Part shown: positions 116-6,473 of the stretch, one piece after another
Layout: every line of letters starts with the position of its first letter
How positions within the stretch are numbered: the first letter of the stretch is position 1
Source: a virus
Taxonomy: Duplodnaviria; Heunggongvirae; Uroviricota; Caudoviricetes
Virus record (IMG/VR): IMGVR_UViG_3300029841_000297
Length of the DNA: 6,473 nt
Reading direction: 5' to 3' (one strand)
Program-made: the position numbers and the translations under genes
The notes under the pieces: model-generated
Told to the model about the DNA's origin: nothing
Databases searched by the model: none
The model's input: the letters and a program-made list of their open reading frames with translations, nothing else

Positions 116-454
116 ATGGAATTTAAAGATTTACCTCCTTCAATCCAGGAGATTGCAGCACACACACTTCGTCATCGTCTGAACGAACTTGAATTGGAAT
201 CGGTAACAAAAAAAGACACTGATAATATGGCTCGCAATGTGCGCGATGCGTTTACTGGGCTGTTTTCAGATACAGCTTTAAATATCCATGGCACAGAGGA
301 TACAGCAAAACAATTTGCAGAAAAAGAAGTGGAAGATCCCAGTTCAAAGAGCCAGAAACAGCCAAACAACCATGAAATTAACGAACTGCTTCTGGCAACA
401 GGCTTCATAAATATTAACGAATATGAACGCCGTAAAAAAATGTTATCTGATTAA
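116..454 (+). CDS. Hypothetical phage protein, 112 aa, charged and hydrophilic; function unknown
   Basis: ATG at 116 preceded by GAGG at 106..109 (6-nt spacing); uninterrupted 112-codon frame; no motif I can recognise. Confidence 0.6.
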   Translation: MEFKDLPPSIQEIAAHTLRHRLNELELESVTKKDTDNMARNVRDAFTGLFSDTALNIHGTEDTAKQFAEKEVEDPSSKSQKQPNNHEINELLLATGFININEYERRKKMLSD

Positions 455-637
455 TCCATCAAGATATCTTTTTAGCATCAGCGTTTCTACGTTATTAAAA
501 CCATCAGATTTTAACATAGCTTCGATTCGCTGATTTAAATTGCCAACTAACTGTTGATACTGAGTAGATGGAAGCATGTGTACCAGCTCCTTGAGAACAC
601 AATAACATGCACCAAGTTTTAACTCCTGCTCTGACAT
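443..637 (-). CDS. Hypothetical small protein, 64 aa (MSEQELKLGACYCVLKELVHMLPSTQYQQLVGNLNQRIEAMLKSDGFNNVETLMLKRYLDGLIR), likely helical; opposite orientation to the rest of the operon
   Basis: ATG at 637..635 preceded on the minus strand by GGAGG at 7-nt spacing. The longer 443..709 frame in the ORF track begins at a GTG with no ribosome-binding site. Its 3' end overlaps the 116..454 gene by 12 bp. Confidence 0.55.
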   Translation of the reverse strand: MSEQELKLGACYCVLKELVHMLPSTQYQQLVGNLNQRIEAMLKSDGFNNVETLMLKRYLDGLIR

Positions 638-1212
638 TTTATCCTCCATTGAGGTTACTGGTTGAGAATGGAGACCTCTCGTGACAGCGTGTGGTCGTGC
701 GCCGGACACGGATAAGAATCCGGCACTGACAGTTTACTGAAAGGATATTTCCCTGAAAAGTCAGACCATAACGCGAAAGCGTACGGCGAGGTAGCTGGTT
801 CATAGATAGCCTGTCGTTAAATTTTCGTCGACCGTGCGCTTCCGGTTGTGGCAATCCGCGAAATGGCGCGGCGGTAAGTATGGCGGGGTTATTCCTTCCC
901 CCGTTGAGGACACCGGGTTGTCAGGTTGACCATACGCTTAAGTGACAACCCCGCTGCAACGCCCTCTGTTATCAATTTTCTGGTGACGTTTGGCGGTATC
1001 AGTTTTACTCCGTGACTGCTCTGCCGCCCTTTTTAAAGTGAATTTTGTGATGCGGTGAATGCGGCTGAGCGCACGCGGAACAGTTAAAGCAGTAAGGCGG
1101 TCTTTTACTGGCGTAACGAGCATCAACTAACCCGGCGTTAATTGTTAACTGGTTAACGTCACCTGGAGGCACCAGGCACTGCATCACAAAATTCATTGTT
1201 GAGGACGCGATA
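638..1212. promoter_or_regulatory. ~575-bp ORF-poor region with multiple perfect hairpins: candidate structured ncRNA and/or promoter-operator region for the flanking divergent genes
   Basis: No + strand ORF longer than ~23 codons. Perfect inverted repeats at 701..724 (6 bp), 771..782 (ACGC-GAAA-GCGT, GNRA-type tetraloop), 915..951 (9 bp stem, 19-nt loop) and 1162..1176; imperfect palindrome with two GTTAAC hexamers at 1136..1158. GC is about 52% against about 40% in neighbouring phage genes. Confidence 0.3.
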
Positions 1213-1401
1213 ATGGAAACGTTATTACCAAACGTTAATACGTCTGAAGGTTGTTTTGAAATTGGTGTCACTATCAGTAACCCTGTATTTACTGAAGATG
1301 CCATTAACAAGAGAAAACACGAACGGGAGTTATTAAATAAAATATGCATTCTTTCAATGCTGGCCCGTTTACGTCCGATACAAAAAGGATGTGCACAATG
1401 A
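1213..1401 (+). CDS. Hypothetical small protein, 62 aa
   Basis: ATG at 1213 preceded by GAGGA at 1201..1205 (7-nt spacing); its stop overlaps the next start in an ATGA junction (1398..1401). Confidence 0.45.
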   Translation: METLLPNVNTSEGCFEIGVTISNPVFTEDAINKRKHERELLNKICILSMLARLRPIQKGCAQ

Positions 1402-1589
1402 ATACAGCATTTGCACTTGTTCTGACAGTTTTTCTTGTTTCCGGAGAGCCAGTTGATATTGCAGTCAGTGTTCACAGGACAATGCAGGAGTGTGTGACTG
1501 CAGCAACCGAACAGAAAATTCCCGGTAACTGTTACCCGGTCGATAAAGTTATTCACCAGGATAATAACGAAATCCCGGCAGGTCTTTAA
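1398..1589 (+). CDS. Small protein, 63 aa, with an N-terminal hydrophobic segment (MNTAFALVLTVFLVSG: signal peptide or membrane anchor) and two Cys residues; probably exported or membrane-associated
   Basis: ATG at 1398 with AAAGGA at 1384..1389 (8-nt spacing). The ORF-track frame 1344..1589 shares this frame but its upstream start has no ribosome-binding site. Translationally coupled to the preceding ORF. Confidence 0.55.
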   Translation: MNTAFALVLTVFLVSGEPVDIAVSVHRTMQECVTAATEQKIPGNCYPVDKVIHQDNNEIPAGL

Positions 1590-1681
1590 AACAGTTCCGT
1601 AATAAATATCCGGTTTCATTCTTATATGCCAGCAATGGCAGGGATTTGTTCACCCTTAAATCTGTAATGAGGTAAAACAAA

Positions 1682-4153
1682 ATGAGTAAAGTCTTTATTT
1701 GCGCCGCCATTCCGGACGAACAGGCAATAAAGGAAGAAGGTGCCGTCGCTGTAGCCACTGCCATTGAAGCCGGTGATGAACGTCGCGCCCGCGCAAAATT
1801 TCACTGGCAATTCCTGGAACATTATCCGGCTGCTCAGGACTGCGCTTATAAATTTCTTGTCTGCGAGGATAAACCCGGTATACCCCGCCCTGCCCTCGAT
1901 TCCTGGGATGCTGAATATATGCAGGAAAACCGCTGGGATGAGGCGTCTGCTTCCTTTGTCCCGGTTGAGACTGAATCAGATCCGATGAACGTCACTTTTG
2001 ACAAGCTGGCCCCTGAAGTACAGAACGCTGTCATGGTTAAGTTCGACACATGTGAAAACATCACCGTTGATATGGTGATTAGCGCGCAGGAACTGTTGCA
2101 GGAAGACATGGCAACATTCGACGGACATATCGTTGAAGCGTTGATGAAAATGCCAGAAGTTAACGCCATGTATCCGGAGCTTAAGCTGCATGCCATCGGG
2201 TGGGTTAAGCATAAATGTAAGCCTGGTGCCAAATGGCCCGAAATTCAGGCAGAGATGCGCATCTGGAAAAAACGTCGCGAAGGTGAACGCAAGGAAGCCG
2301 GAAAATACACGTCTGTTGTTGATCTCGCCCGCGCCAGAGCCAATCAACAGCACACTGAAAATTCAACAGGAAAAATCAACCCGGTCATTGCTGCCATTCA
2401 TCGCGAATACAAGCAGACATGGAAAACACTGGATGACGAACTGGCCTACGCTCTCTGGCCTGGTGATGTGGATGCCGGAAACATTGACGGCAGCATCCAT
2501 CGCTGGGCAAAAAATGAAGTTATCGACAACGACCGCGAAGACTGGAAGCGTATCTCGGCATCAATGCGCAAACAGCCTGATGCCCTTCGCTACGACCGCC
2601 AGACTATTTTTGGCCTTGTCCGTGAACGTCCGATCGACATTCACAAAGACCCTGTGGCACTGAACAAATACATTACTGAATACCTGACTACAAAGGGCGT
2701 GTTTGAAGATGAAGGAACAAATCAGAGCGCAACTGATACTCTCTCGTCGCCAGTACCAGAAACTGATGCAGTGGAAACGGCAATTCCGGACAACGAAAAA
2801 ACCGAATGCAAAGTGGAAGTCGAACCATCTGTAGAACGTGAGGGGCCGTTCTACTTCCTCTTCACCGACAAGGATGGCGAAAAATACGGTCGCGCAAACA
2901 AACTTTCTGGTCTGGATAAGGCGCTGTCTGCTGGGGCTACTGAAATCACGAAAGAAGAATATTTCGCCCGCAAAAACGGTACATACTCAGGTTCACAACA
3001 AAATACTGGTGCATCTGACACGACCGCACAACCAGGGTCAGTAAAAGTTACCGCTGACGAAGTAAACAAAATTATGCAGGCAGCCAATATCAGCCAGCCT
3101 GACGCCGATGAACTGCTTGCAGTATCACGTGGTGAATTTGTTGAAGGGATTAGCGACCCGAATGATCCGAAATGGGTTAAGGGGAACCAGACCCGCGATT
3201 CTGTGAACCAGAACCAGCAAGAAACGGAACAGAACGACCAGAAAGCGGAACAAAACAGCCCAAATGCGTTACAAAACGAGCCAGAAACGAAACAGCCTGA
3301 ATCAGTGGCGCAACAGGAAGTGGAAAAAGTCTGCACCGCCTGCGGTCAGACCGGCGGCGGCAACTGCCCTGATTGTGGCGCGGTAATGGGCGACGCAACA
3401 TACCAGGAAACATTCGATGAAGAGTATCAGCCTGAAGTTCAGGAAGATGATCCGGAGGAAATGGAAGGCGCTGAACATCCACACAAGGAGAACACTGGCG
3501 GCAATCAGCATCACGATAGCGATAATGAAACTGGCGAGACGGCAGATCACTCAATTAAGGTGAACGGTCATCAAGAAATCACATCCACCAGCAGGACGTG
3601 TGACCATCTAATGATCGACCTTGAAACCATGGGAAAAAATCCTGATGCCCCGATCATCTCAATAGGTGCAATATTTTTCGATCCGCAAACCGGAGATATG
3701 GGACCGGAATTTAGTAAGACTATCGATCTGGAAACTGCTGGCGGGGTCATTGATCGGGACACCATTAAATGGTGGCTTAAGCAATCACGCGAAGCGCAAT
3801 CTGCCATTATGACCGATGAAATCCCGTTAGATGATGCACTGTTACAATTGCGGGAATTTATCGACGAAAACTCCGGTGAATTTTTTGTTCAGGTTTGGGG
3901 AAATGGAGCCAACTTCGACAACACGATTTTGCGCCGTTCATACGAACGGCAGGGGATCCCCTGCCCGTGGCGTTACTACAACGATCGCGATGTACGCACA
4001 ATCGTTGAGCTGGGGAAAGCCATAGACTTCGATGCCAGAACGGCTATTCCATTCGAAGGTGAGCGCCATAATGCACTTGATGACGCTCGTTACCAGGCAA
4101 AATACGTTTCAGCTATCTGGCAAAAACTGATCCCGAGTCAGGCTGATTTTTAA
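1682..4153 (+). CDS. Large phage exonuclease, 823 aa: RecE (exodeoxyribonuclease VIII)-like N-terminal and middle region, acidic/Q-rich linkers, a CxxC-x10-CxxC zinc-ribbon-like motif, and a C-terminal DEDDh (DnaQ/RNase T-like) 3'-5' exonuclease domain
   Basis: GAGG at 1669..1672 about 9 nt before ATG 1682; 823-codon frame. C-terminal domain (about nt 3599..4150) carries exo motif I MIDLETMG (D at 3617..3619, E at 3623..3625), motif II WGNGANFDN and motif III HNALDDARY (H at 4067..4069), the DEDDh pattern. The segment LLAVSRGEFVEGISDPNDPKWVKGNQTRD matches what I recall of Rac RecE (from memory, unverified). Cys cluster CTACGQTGGGNCPDCG at 3332..3376. Confidence 0.8.
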   Translation: MSKVFICAAIPDEQAIKEEGAVAVATAIEAGDERRARAKFHWQFLEHYPAAQDCAYKFLVCEDKPGIPRPALDSWDAEYMQENRWDEASASFVPVETESDPMNVTFDKLAPEVQNAVMVKFDTCENITVDMVISAQELLQEDMATFDGHIVEALMKMPEVNAMYPELKLHAIGWVKHKCKPGAKWPEIQAEMRIWKKRREGERKEAGKYTSVVDLARARANQQHTENSTGKINPVIAAIHREYKQTWKTLDDELAYALWPGDVDAGNIDGSIHRWAKNEVIDNDREDWKRISASMRKQPDALRYDRQTIFGLVRERPIDIHKDPVALNKYITEYLTTKGVFEDEGTNQSATDTLSSPVPETDAVETAIPDNEKTECKVEVEPSVEREGPFYFLFTDKDGEKYGRANKLSGLDKALSAGATEITKEEYFARKNGTYSGSQQNTGASDTTAQPGSVKVTADEVNKIMQAANISQPDADELLAVSRGEFVEGISDPNDPKWVKGNQTRDSVNQNQQETEQNDQKAEQNSPNALQNEPETKQPESVAQQEVEKVCTACGQTGGGNCPDCGAVMGDATYQETFDEEYQPEVQEDDPEEMEGAEHPHKENTGGNQHHDSDNETGETADHSIKVNGHQEITSTSRTCDHLMIDLETMGKNPDAPIISIGAIFFDPQTGDMGPEFSKTIDLETAGGVIDRDTIKWWLKQSREAQSAIMTDEIPLDDALLQLREFIDENSGEFFVQVWGNGANFDNTILRRSYERQGIPCPWRYYNDRDVRTIVELGKAIDFDARTAIPFEGERHNALDDARYQAKYVSAIWQKLIPSQADF
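3599..4150 (+). other. DEDDh 3'-5' exonuclease domain within the 823-aa protein
   Basis: Motifs D-x-E, D and H-x4-D in the canonical order and spacing of DnaQ-like/RNase T-like exonucleases. Confidence 0.7.
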
Positions 4154-4211
4154 TGTTCAACCCTAATTGCCGCTAACCGTATATAGTTAGCGGCGGTTAT
4201 GAGATATAGCT

Positions 4212-4415
4212 ATGAGCAGCTTATTTTTAACCGAAGATGAATTGCTAATATTAACGGGCTGCAAATATGCAAGCCACCAGCGAAAATGGTTAATGGAAAA
4301 CGGGCTTCCGTTCTATACCAATCGTAGTGGCAAACCGATTGTCAGCCGGGATCTATTTACCTGCAATAAAACTTTACCACCACGCGAGGTAGAGCCGAAT
4401 TTTGGTGCGATCTGA
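4212..4415 (+). CDS. xis: Excisionase-like small DNA-binding protein, 67 aa (DUF4224-type, found immediately upstream of prophage integrases)
   Basis: Position directly upstream of int, with its stop overlapping the int start (ATGA-type junction at 4413..4417). The pattern LTxxELxxLTGxKxxxxQxxWLxxNGLPF is typical of this family (recalled). Confidence 0.7.
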   Translation: MSSLFLTEDELLILTGCKYASHQRKWLMENGLPFYTNRSGKPIVSRDLFTCNKTLPPREVEPNFGAI

Positions 4416-5440
4416 TGGGAAGACGAAGGAAAAATCCTGAACACGAAAAATTACCTCCAAATGTATACCCAAATAAATATAGTTATGTATGGAAACCAAC
4501 ATCCAGAGAATCTGTCACACTAACCGCCATCAAGGATGGTTTAGCTGCTTTATGGAAAAAGTATGAGGAAACTGTAAATAATCGCGATCGTGCAATGACA
4601 TTCGGTCGCTTGTGGGAAAAATTCCTCGCCAGCGCCTGTTACAGTGACCTTAGTCCAAGAACACAAAAAGATTATCTGCAACATCAAAAAAAGTTGCTTG
4701 CCGTATTCGGTAAGGTACCAGCGGATTCCATAAAACCAGAACACATCCGTCGATACATGGACAAAAGAGGGGAGCAGAGTAAAACGCAAGCCAACCATGA
4801 AAAAAGCAGTATGTCCCGTGTTTACAGTTGGGGGTATGAGCGAGGGTACGTCAAGGCTAACCCATGTGCAGGTGTAAGTAAATTCAAGGCCAAAAACCGC
4901 GAACGATATGTAACCGACAAAGAATACCAGGCAGTATTAAGCGTTGCACCTCTTCCTGTTTTTATCGCAATGGAAATTGCCTATCTGTGTGCAGCGAGGG
5001 TTTCCGATGTGTTATCGCTGAAATGGGAACAGATTGGAAACGACGGGATATTCATCCAGCAAGGGAAAACCGGAAAAAAACAGATAAAAGCATGGAGTCC
5101 ACGATTACAGGCAGCGATCGAAAAAGCAAAACAGTTACCAAAATCTGCCTATGTGATCAGCAATCAATACGGCAACCGATATATGTACAAAGGCTTTAAC
5201 GAAATGTGGGTAGAAGCAAGAAATCGTGCTGGAAAAATTTCAGGTATTTTAACCGACTTCACCTTTCATGATCTGAAGGCGAAAGGAATTTCAGACTATG
5301 AAGGAAGCAGCCGGGATAAGCAACTTTTCTCTGGTCACAAAACCGAAGGGCAAGTGCTAATCTATGACAGGAAGGTTAAAGTTTCACCAACACTTGATGT
5401 CCCGTTACCTGAAAATATTCCAAGAAAATATTCCAAGTAA
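4415..5440 (+). CDS. int: Lambda-family tyrosine integrase, 341 aa, with N-terminal arm-binding domain
   Basis: N-terminus MGRRRKNPEHEKLPPNVY resembles lambda Int MGRRRSHERRDLPPNLY. Catalytic-region matches: AARVSDVLSLKWEQI (Arg I), QQGKTG (Lys), FHDLK (box II), GHKTEGQVLIYDR (His and Tyr nucleophile) versus lambda RVGDLCEMKWSDI / SKTG / FHELR / GHKSDTMASQYRDD. Lies next to a tRNA gene. Confidence 0.93.
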   Translation: MGRRRKNPEHEKLPPNVYPNKYSYVWKPTSRESVTLTAIKDGLAALWKKYEETVNNRDRAMTFGRLWEKFLASACYSDLSPRTQKDYLQHQKKLLAVFGKVPADSIKPEHIRRYMDKRGEQSKTQANHEKSSMSRVYSWGYERGYVKANPCAGVSKFKAKNRERYVTDKEYQAVLSVAPLPVFIAMEIAYLCAARVSDVLSLKWEQIGNDGIFIQQGKTGKKQIKAWSPRLQAAIEKAKQLPKSAYVISNQYGNRYMYKGFNEMWVEARNRAGKISGILTDFTFHDLKAKGISDYEGSSRDKQLFSGHKTEGQVLIYDRKVKVSPTLDVPLPENIPRKYSK

Positions 5441-5447
5441 TTCCAAG
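5414..5447. repeat. Direct repeats AAATATTCCAAG x2 (5413..5424, 5426..5437) plus a third TTCCAAG (5441..5447) spanning the int stop codon; candidate arm-type integrase binding sites
   Basis: Perfect 12-bp direct repeat at 13-bp period and a third heptamer copy 10 bp on, about 45 bp from the tRNA 3' end. Confidence 0.35.
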
Positions 5448-5492
5448 TGTGATTTTTGTCACTGACTTAATGATGTGTAAGTGATTGAATTT

Positions 5493-5540
5493 TGGCGGAG
5501 AGAGGGGGATTTGAACCCCCGGTGGAGTTGCCCCCACTCC
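5493..5540. other. Probable att core / prophage-host junction overlapping the 3' portion of tRNA-Ser (attL in lambda convention); extent approximate
   Basis: The integrase is transcribed toward the tRNA and ends 52 bp from its 3' end. Tyrosine-integrase prophages at tRNA genes carry a core identical to the tRNA 3' segment. The second copy needed to delimit it is outside the window. Confidence 0.45.
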
Positions 5541-5582
5541 GGTTTTCGAGACCGGTCCGTTCAGCCGCTCCGGCATCTCTCC
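5493..5582 (-). tRNA. serU: tRNA-Ser (anticodon CGA), 90 nt, class II tRNA with long variable arm
   Basis: Reverse complement reads GGAGAGATGCCGGAGCGGCTGAACGGACCGGTCTCGAAAACCGGAGTGGGGGCAACTCCACCGGGGGTTCAAATCCCCCTCTCTCCGCCA: 7-bp acceptor stem, anticodon loop CU-CGA-AA, T-loop GGTTCAAAT, 3' GCCA. Adjacent to mtfA as in E. coli (recalled gene order). Confidence 0.95.
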
Positions 5583-5675
5583 GTTCAGATGGTTGCCATG
5601 ATGCCAGGAAATTTGGCATTTTAACAGTCCCTGTCCGTGCAATTTTGTTCAAGTGACGAGTTTGCGAGCAAAACG
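5583..5675. promoter_or_regulatory. Divergent intergenic region expected to carry the tRNA-Ser and mtfA promoters
   Basis: Lies between the 5' ends of the two divergent genes. On the minus strand a TAAAAT -10-like hexamer (5619..5624) sits upstream of the tRNA; hairpin ATGCCA-GGAAATT-TGGCAT at 5601..5619. No clear -35. Confidence 0.3.
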
Positions 5676-6473
5676 ATGATTAAGTGGCCCTGGAAAGTAC
5701 AAGAATCAGCACATCAAACTGCCCTTCCCTGGCAGGAAGCACTATCGATCCCCCTTTTAACGTGTCTGACAGAACAGGAACAAAGCAAATTGGTCGCTCT
5801 TGCCGAACGTTTTTTACAGCAAAAACGGCTTGTTCCTTTACAGGGCTTTGAGCTGAATTCATTAAGAAGCTGCCGGATAGCACTTCTATTTTGCCTGCCC
5901 GTTCTGGAGTTAGGACTGGAATGGCTGGATGGTTTTCATGAAGTCTTAATTTATCCTGCGCCATTTGTGGTCGATGATGAATGGGAAGACGATATCGGTC
6001 TGGTGCATAACCAACGTATTGTTCAGTCAGGTCAGAGCTGGCAGCAAGGGCCTATCGTTTTGAACTGGTTGGATATACAAGATTCTTTTGATGCTTCTGG
6101 TTTTAACCTGATTATTCATGAAGTCGCTCATAAGCTGGACACCCGTAACGGCGATCGCGCCAGCGGAGTTCCCTTTATTTCGTTGCGTGAGGTTGCTGGC
6201 TGGGAACACGATCTTCATGCTGCAATGAACAACATTCAGGAAGAAATCGAATTAGTTGGTGAGAATGCGGCGAGCATTGATGCTTATGCTGCCAGTGATC
6301 CTGCTGAATGTTTTGCCGTACTTTCTGAATATTTCTTTAGCGCCCCAGAACTTTTTGCTCCTCGTTTCCCTTCATTGTGGCAACGTTTCTGTCAATTTTA
6401 TCAACAAGATCCTTTGCAGAGACTGCATCACGCTAATGATACAGACTCGTTTTCGGCGACGAATGTTCATTAA
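5676..6473 (+). CDS. mtfA: MtfA, Mlc titration factor A / zinc-dependent peptidase, 265 aa
   Basis: Protein [23 protein letters not shown]... with HEVAH metallopeptidase motif; length and sequence match E. coli MtfA as I recall it. The ORF-track frame 5637..6473 begins at an upstream in-frame GTG; ATG 5676 is preferred. Confidence 0.9.

Follow-up and report, generated by a model that had tools for sequence, protein, structure and literature searches.

The segment at 638..1212 can be identified with high confidence as the dicF locus of a lambdoid, Qin-like prophage, in which it makes up an untranslated spacer within the dicBF (dicB) operon. The window, i.e. the whole stretch of DNA that was analysed (6,473 nt), is the left arm of such a prophage from E. 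coli, integrated at a tRNA-Ser gene adjoining mtfA. The Rfam scan that the first-pass annotation had suggested as a check recovers DicF (RF00039) on the plus strand at 978..1029 with 76.7 bits against a gathering threshold of 48 (E = 3.7e-16) and covers positions 1-52 of the 52 in the model, and the sequence at 977..1029 is identical to dicF of K-12 (b1574, NC_000913.3 1649382..1649434). A record of phage Tritos under the BLAST match reads 'DicF antisense sRNA, inhibits ftsZ'. As in a DicF operon, dicF lies upstream of dicB and ydfD in a prophage early operon. The earlier suggestion of a structured non-coding RNA, either an sRNA or a long leader, is hereby borne out in both its forms: the segment holds the DicF gene inside a long processed precursor, and the leader of the dicBF operon. 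The dicF locus of this operon has been known since about 1990 and DicF was among the first bacterial sRNAs to be described; this ncRNA core, DicF and its processed precursor, is already known and not new, and the lack of ORFs in this gap belongs to the textbook picture of the dicB operon. The sRNA and its terminator are located as follows.

977..1029, plus strand: DicF sRNA, 53 nt (Rfam RF00039, identity with b1574)
992..1034, plus strand: DicF terminator, in which 992..998 and 1000..1003 pair with 1015..1018 and 1022..1028, followed by the U-tract 1030..1034

The terminator was delimited from the Rfam consensus structure line, the fold and the sequence. Its stem at 992..1028 has a folding energy of -15.9 kcal/mol and is directed into UUUUU at 1030..1034; a generic terminator scan missed it because the stem is long and interrupted. 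This is the strongest known hairpin of the segment, and it was overlooked in the first-pass annotation.

The genes around the segment are those of a lambdoid early region, and the features that matter for its interpretation are the following.

443..637, minus strand: gene matching phrog_4987 (E = 3e-49), annotated as hypothetical protein WP_001295058.1
642..647, minus strand: ribosome-binding site of gene 443..637 (GGAGGA as the complement of these positions), read from the sequence
638..695, minus strand: 5' flank of gene 443..637 with its ribosome-binding site; homology to K-12 begins only at ~696/697
1201..1205, plus strand: dicB ribosome-binding site GAGGA, a Shine-Dalgarno sequence four bases past the end of a 21-bp helix
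1213..1401, plus strand: dicB coding sequence (Pfam DicB PF05358, E = 4e-38; RefSeq annotation of homologues)
1398..1589, plus strand: DUF1482/YdfD homologue (DUF1482 match)
1682..4153, plus strand: exonuclease of 823 aa, an early gene
5493..5582, minus strand: tRNA-Ser(CGA), with mtfA next to it

The opposite-strand gene at 443..637, on which the description of the segment had relied, is real, given its GGAGGA ribosome-binding site and its PHROG match. An excisionase-like gene and then an integrase follow downstream of the exonuclease, and near-identical prophages carry a DicA-like repressor and a DUF1391/ydfA-like gene upstream. In these near-identical prophages RefSeq has nothing annotated between the genes that flank 638..1212.

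The closest described relative is the dicBF operon of Qin in K-12. There, as here, DicF lies between an early-operon gene and dicB-ydfD, and the ORF-free ydfC-dicB gap measures 567 nt compared to 575 nt in our segment. Positions 697..1092 and 1136..1215 are near-identical to that spacer, while the block 1093..1135 is divergent. The left neighbour differs, being ydfB/ydfC in K-12 and the minus-strand phrog_4987 gene here, and K-12 Qin lacks 638..695 as well as gene 443..637. Furthermore, the Qin locus is degraded, in contrast to the tRNA-Ser/mtfA site described here with its intact-looking integrase and exonuclease. The cassette (query 400..1450) is found in 4736 of 5426 complete E. coli genomes, with a median of 2 copies, but only 148 genomes cover at least 80% of that query and thereby include the minus-strand gene. 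The replacement of ydfB/ydfC by a minus-strand gene could have consequences of its own, as convergent transcription might alter the read-through into dicF.

It is confirmed that 638..1212 is a real ORF-free and structured spacer, with no credible ORF. The first-pass annotation had described the plus strand as free of any ORF above ~23 codons; its ORF-free nature stands, but the length limit does not, as a single plus-strand ORF of 31 aa with a GTG start lies at 834..929. The longest stop-free run on the plus strand extends over 57 codons, and the minus strand contains four ORFs that overlap the segment.

639..854, minus strand: ORF of 71 aa, TTG start
800..913, minus strand: ORF of 37 aa
938..1126, minus strand: ORF of 62 aa, TTG start
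1005..1619, minus strand: ORF of 204 aa, antisense to dicB/ydfD

These ORFs bear on the possibility that the segment is the decayed remnant of a protein gene with incidental hairpins, which had been offered as one of the explanations and which we regard as extremely improbable. In its favour one may note that the gap takes the place of coding density in a compact operon, that the minus strand offers ORFs of 62 and 71 aa, the former intact in 39 of 43 distinct homologues, and that some phage records annotate a 'hypothetical protein' over the homologous region of 638..1212. However, a search of Pfam and PHROGs with every ORF and stop-free stretch of 638..1212 on both strands returned zero matches. 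Frameshifts interrupt the 71-aa ORF in 57 of 73 distinct homologues and the 31-aa plus-strand ORF in 27 of 52. Intactness of the 62-aa ORF is uninformative, because its sequence is ~99% conserved, and the ORF is lost in sibling cassettes in which seed and terminator are swapped. Substitutions lack a 3-base periodicity, their rates by codon position being 0.060, 0.049 and 0.053. The alignment of homologues, likewise proposed earlier as a check, displays compensatory changes in a scaffold domain upstream of DicF and in helices P1, P2 and P5 downstream of it (see below); such compensatory pair changes, together with G-U pairs that are consistent with the plus strand, point to selection at the RNA level.

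The dicF locus is also set apart by composition and folding. As had been noted, it is richer in GC than its neighbours, with 0.52-0.54 over 701..1100 compared to 0.345-0.43 on the left and 0.38-0.415 on the right. The plus strand of 638..1212 folds at -209.3 kcal/mol compared to -186.5 +/- 6.2 kcal/mol for dinucleotide shuffles (z = -3.70; none of 100 shuffles equals it), and the minus strand of the same segment has z = -3.09. For sub-segments the z values are -2.12 (755..860), -2.27 (840..1034) and -4.09 (1035..1215). All four hairpins listed in the first-pass annotation are present as described:

701..724, plus strand: hairpin, 6-bp stem, -9.8 kcal/mol
771..782, plus strand: hairpin, 4 bp and GAAA loop, -4.2 kcal/mol
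915..951, plus strand: hairpin, 9 bp, -13.8 kcal/mol
1162..1176, plus strand: hairpin, 5 bp, -6.2 kcal/mol

Their functional standing is less uniform than their presence: the hairpins at 915..951 and 1162..1176 have compensatory support, whereas the other two do not. The precise architecture is best followed from left to right, beginning with the region upstream of the precursor.

696..765, plus strand: variable upstream spacer with the hairpin 701..724 and a nested hairpin at ~726..764
766..791 with 826..851, plus strand: long imperfect helix of 23 bp with a variable (hypervariable) apical part

The spacer at 696..765 is common to our prophage and K-12, but other dicF cassettes carry unrelated sequence in its place, and among those the conserved cassette begins only at ~757-766. 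Its stems are conserved, and no compensatory changes were seen in them. The long helix that follows appears in both the MFE and the centroid fold. Across 56 distinct homologues 93.8% of the alignment cells are paired, compared to 31-40% when the helix is slid; nine pairs display one-sided, pairing-compatible variation, and double-sided compensatory change is absent among these 56 sequences. The GNRA hairpin at 771..782, which lies within the left arm, was considered as a functional unit in its own right and rejected: it is probably not the functional fold, as the natural variants G773A and U782C break it. Both variants are compatible with the long helix, in which they give a bulge and a C-G pair, respectively. 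Conservation, thermodynamics and the agreement with gel size estimates suggest that the 766..851 helix is the RNase III site that makes the 5' end (~839/840) of the 190-nt DicF species known from K-12.

The 5' part of this precursor forms a multi-branched domain, which is separated from DicF by a short linker.

845..960, plus strand: scaffold domain, 116 nt, 5' part of the 190-nt precursor
845..851/954..960, plus strand: scaffold closing stem
856..860/867..871 and 884..888/899..903, plus strand: scaffold hairpins
872..875/912..915, plus strand: scaffold long-range helix
916..923/943..950, plus strand: scaffold hairpin, the same as the hairpin 915..951 above
961..976, plus strand: AU-rich linker, single-stranded; RNase E cut at 976/977 (AAU/UUU, the slash marking the cut), placed from the 5' end of K-12 dicF

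The scaffold covaries. In an alignment of 87 distinct sequences 95.6% of the cells are paired, compared to 36-64% when the structure is slid; seven pairs have changed on both sides, a number matched by 2 of 500 shuffles, and the 30 double-change cells are reached by none of the 500. No family in the Rfam scan covers 845..960. In the linker, AAU/UUU at 976/977 matches the RNase E motif RN/WUU. When 840..1034 is folded alone, the MFE structure pairs GGCGGUA at 871..877 with the 3' arm of the terminator at 1022..1028. This potential anti-terminator was rejected because sibling cassettes with different terminators keep GGCGGUA, and comparative data favour the long-range helix 872..875/912..915.

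The closing stem of the scaffold is also informative about the strand: its G-U pairs (UG in 55 of 87 sequences, GU in 63 of 87) imply that the plus strand is the folded one, since on the minus strand they would become A-C mismatches. This weighs against the view that the functional transcript runs on the minus strand, as a 5' UTR, promoter region or antisense RNA for gene 443..637, with DicF as a mere passenger. The ribosome-binding site at 642..647 implies that the promoter of that gene must lie to the right of 650, and the minus strand does fold better than its shuffles (z = -3.09 as given above). Nevertheless, K-12 and most dicF cassettes lack both gene 443..637 and 638..695 (148 compared to 4736 genomes), from which it follows that the conserved cassette is independent of the minus-strand gene. 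Within 638..1212 the promoter scan returned no site on the minus strand, and a minus-strand function would explain at most the left ~60-150 nt. We therefore consider a minus-strand transcript very unlikely as the explanation of the segment, and retain the plus-strand dicF locus.

The scaffold is not restricted to DicF. Pattern scans of IMG/VR and BLAST searches of phage genomes revealed that it precedes about 12 different seed-plus-terminator modules, and its carriers comprise lambdoid prophages, Stx2c-converting phages, phage cdtI, in which it lies ~350 nt downstream of cI, and P1/P7. The clearest compensatory changes come from P1 and P7. The Pban leader of these phages contains a 'dicF-like region' (68791..68892 in P1), which is 77-82% identical to 856..953, with compensatory changes in three helices, and is likewise followed by an intrinsic terminator, but it has another seed and terminator and the Rfam DicF match is absent. 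This region comes directly after Pban, a C1-controlled promoter, and lies upstream of tRNA genes, and a domain resembling the one in the dicB leader (see below) follows ~1.2-1.4 kb further on, before tciA/terB. Another structured RNA near an early promoter, the put antiterminator RNA of HK022, differs in architecture: it consists of ~70 nt with two stem-loops, compared to the 116-nt multi-branch domain of the scaffold, and HK022 is absent among the 40 listed of the 61 phage records with a scaffold BLAST match.

Downstream of the DicF terminator the leader of dicB folds into a second multi-branched domain.

1037..1197, plus strand: STnc100-like domain, multi-branched, dicB leader (z = -4.09 for 1035..1215)
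1037..1057/1177..1197, plus strand: helix P1, 21 uninterrupted bp
1060..1065/1071..1077, plus strand: P2, preceded by a GGUGAAU junction
1090..1095/1105..1110, plus strand: P3, variable
1136..1141/1153..1158, plus strand: P4
1081..1087 with 1145..1151, plus strand: pseudoknot
1162..1166/1172..1176, plus strand: P5, the same as the hairpin 1162..1176 above, terminal hairpin of the domain

The Rfam family STnc100 (RF02076) matches 1027..1245 with 30.8 bits (E = 7e-4), which is below its gathering threshold of 47, and the homologues in K-12 (34.4 bits), P7 (43 bits), P1 (33.4 bits) and Shigella phage 75/02 are likewise sub-threshold; besides this match no riboswitch or ribozyme family in Rfam was found. 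With STnc100/PasD the domain at 1037..1197 has in common the GGUGAAU junction, the P2 hairpin, a hairpin that immediately precedes CACC, and a CCNGG-AGGCA-CCNGG hairpin stacked on the closing helix. The family to which it belongs is large and highly diverse: a motif search yielded 229 hits, whose 150 distinct 240-nt sequences fall into 54 clusters at 85% identity, and the motifs GGUGAAU and CACC-NGG-AGGCA-CCN-GGCAC are invariant among elements that are otherwise ~40% identical; collection by motif pattern biases such sequence sets toward conserved cores. The bases at the two N positions complement each other without exception, 87 of the 150 distinct sequences having G/C and the other 63 T/A. 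Five pairs of P1 show 2-16 double-sided changes, three pairs of P2 have C-G/G-C flips, and the central P5 pair occurs as GC in 30 sequences and as UA in 9. For the pseudoknot, in which the stretch behind P2 pairs with the loop of P4, the median run is 7.5 compared to 5.0 in shuffles, and the 39 members have 28 distinct arm sequences. The covariance model R1, for which only STnc100-like elements from other contexts were used, gives 67.4 bits at 1046..1187, to which the collection motif contributes a part.

Two types of copies can be distinguished. Those with a long closing helix have dicB, TerB/tciA or a gene of 73 aa directly behind them. This 73-aa gene matched no Pfam family; by its length and position it is probably the Kil gene annotated in Shigella phage 75/02. 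Copies in which the closing helix is short, STnc100 proper, have their own tail and terminator and are found ~100 nt before holin genes. The closing helix of STnc100 measures 8-10 bp, in contrast to the 21 bp at 1037..1197, and STnc100 is a free-standing sRNA with its own seed and terminator, whereas our domain has neither. It is followed by no U-run or terminator, and the Shine-Dalgarno sequence of dicB comes within 4 nt, then the ATG. Given that a seed-plus-terminator tail of its own is missing and the dicB ribosome-binding site is next to it, the domain is to be seen as a leader or processing domain and not as a free-standing sRNA. STnc100 and PasD have been described as prophage sRNAs of unknown function, and DicF is never mentioned in a 2026 preprint on them; a connection of the STnc100/PasD family with the spacer between dicF and dicB would, if true, be new.

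The positions of the two longest predicted helices agree with what is known about the processing of DicF. In K-12, DicF is cut from the polycistronic dicBp transcript, for which no internal promoter was found; a 190-nt species owes its 5' end to RNase III, whereas that of the 53-nt RNA is made by RNase E (Ragunathan et al. 2023). In read-through transcripts an RNase III cut at the 3' end leads to a 72-nt DicF (Balasubramanian et al. 2016). Counting 190 nt back from 1029 leads to ~839/840, in the middle of the 23-bp helix 766..791/826..851, and 72 nt from 977 lead to ~1048, in the middle of the 21-bp helix P1; cut sites that are placed in this way from published K-12 RNA lengths are accurate to +/- a few nt. 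Both helices have the length of an RNase III substrate, a near-continuous duplex of ~20 bp or more, and we infer that the two RNase III cuts take place in the 23-bp and the 21-bp helix, an assignment that fits both sizes. With two helices of 21-23 bp on either side of the mature RNA and the published cut positions in mid-helix, the locus resembles polycistronic phage and sRNA precursors processed by RNase III in general, but the likeness is one in mechanism only. Our base-level map of the precursor places each of the two published RNase III products, 190 nt and 72 nt, at the centre of a particular helix. No internal plus-strand promoter for dicB was found by the promoter scan.

The following course of events can be proposed for this prophage. 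The plus strand would be transcribed within a polycistronic RNA from a DicA-repressed early promoter located upstream of the window. RNase III would cut in 766..791/826..851 and give rise to a species of ~190 nt extending from near 840 to the DicF terminator. Out of this species RNase E, cutting the AU-rich linker at 976/977, would release the 53-nt DicF (977..1029), whose end is its own intrinsic terminator. In RNA that reads through, RNase III would cut in 1037..1057/1177..1197, producing the 72-nt DicF and separating the dicB-ydfD mRNA. DicF is known to repress ftsZ, xylR and pykA together with Hfq, and DicB likewise inhibits division. The same activity as in K-12 is to be expected here, the RNA being identical in sequence: DicF with Hfq would pair with the ftsZ, xylR and pykA mRNAs, so that division is blocked and metabolism altered, and DicB translated from the downstream message would also inhibit division. 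The scaffold at 845..960 or the STnc100-like domain may have a role in stability, in processing or in dicB translation.

The wide distribution of both domains raises the question whether they act beyond the processing of DicF. A reusable covarying scaffold and a pseudoknotted leader around interchangeable seeds are well supported as structures, and their function is putative. It is conceivable, at somewhat less than an even chance, that the scaffold 845..960 and the domain 1037..1197 are autonomous functional RNAs, which would add to the identification as dicF locus and not replace it. The covariation of the scaffold and its position before about 12 different seed-plus-terminator modules argue for autonomy, as do the invariant motifs, the covarying P1, P2 and P5 and the pseudoknot, and the occurrence of leader-type copies before toxic genes and of sRNA-type copies before holins. 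On the other hand, neither domain matched a riboswitch or ribozyme family in Rfam, the conservation could be due to nothing more than signals for processing or stability, and the motif-based collection favours conserved cores, as mentioned above. With the same reserve, we tentatively suggest that DicF is one case of a modular phage RNA cassette in which scaffold and STnc100-like domain fold autonomously. Such a cassette would possibly be laid out as an RNase III helix, the 116-nt scaffold, an interchangeable seed and terminator of about 12 classes, the STnc100-like domain and a toxic gene, for which dicB, the 73-aa probable Kil and TerB are the candidates. The two domains might serve as a platform for stability or for the binding of proteins or ligands, or as a translation or processing switch for the toxic genes.

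The novelty of these findings is modest and lies in the recognition of the scaffold, which has no Rfam family, and of the leader domain as reusable phage RNA modules. In addition, dicF is now annotated in a prophage in which the RefSeq annotation leaves the spacer empty. If the modules set the levels of DicF and DicB in the lysogen, this would bear on the way in which prophages silence toxic division inhibitors, and also on the DicF-dependent control of virulence and morphology in pathogenic E. coli.

Around the structured region, the window also carries these features:

443..637, minus strand: the sole minus-strand gene (64 aa; phrog_4987), annotated as hypothetical protein WP_001295058.1
1682..4153, plus strand: 'exonuclease' gene (823 aa)
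4212..5440, plus strand: region at the prophage end
5493..5582, minus strand: tRNA-Ser(CGA), which together with mtfA adjoins the prophage end

The minus-strand gene has a strong GGAGGA ribosome-binding site and is convergent with the plus-strand ORF 116..454, the two overlapping by 12 nt, and early-operon transcription must run antisense across it. Whereas the window carries this gene, K-12 possesses ydfB/ydfC at the same place, and a coverage of at least 80% of the query containing the gene was reached in only 148 of the 5426 complete E. coli genomes searched. In the exonuclease, the family match is limited to the C-terminal 170 aa, which correspond to an Rv2179c-like 3'-5' exoribonuclease (PF16473). 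No Pfam family matches the N-terminal 640 aa, part of which is acidic, rich in Q/N and of low complexity; this portion also contains a CxxC...CxxC motif around residues 550-565.

Many clinical E. coli genomes match the end of the window (4100..6473) at 100% identity. A closely related prophage in E. coli LC-1302-2020 (locus L269) occupies the same tRNA-Ser/mtfA integration site; its integrase is annotated as frameshifted, and a neighbouring tRNA-Asn is followed by a second integrase and a yersiniabactin island. In this prophage a gene for a Rha-family regulator (region 5246..6100 of L269) is inserted directly after the STnc100-like domain (5074..5212), which is therefore separated from dicB.

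Within the STnc100-like domain of the window, the segment following P2 (1081..1087) pairs with the P4 loop (1145..1151) in a conserved pseudoknot, which is found family-wide in the STnc100-like elements (loci L005-L223) but is absent from the consensus structure line of Rfam STnc100. Together with invariant junction motifs, this predicted pairing suggests a compact tertiary fold of the domain. Single phage contigs can bear two or three tandem, mutually divergent STnc100-like copies spaced by ~250-670 nt (IMG/VR loci L135, at 2331..3272, L145, L146, L147, L159 and L168). In phage P7 (L004), where an STnc100-like element precedes terB, a tRNA-Sec-like Rfam match just below threshold (46.6 versus 47 bits) is located at 2304..2388, ~110 nt upstream of that element.

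The DicF 5' scaffold is common to about 12 classes of sRNA-like genes that differ in seed and terminator sequences, and none of which is detected by the Rfam DicF model. Such genes occur at these loci:

L225/L226, 1495..1700: sRNA-like gene with DicF scaffold
L228, L233, L236, L237, L241, L255 and L268: likewise
phage P1 (L003), 2482..2680: likewise

These genes look like siblings of DicF with targets that presumably differ.
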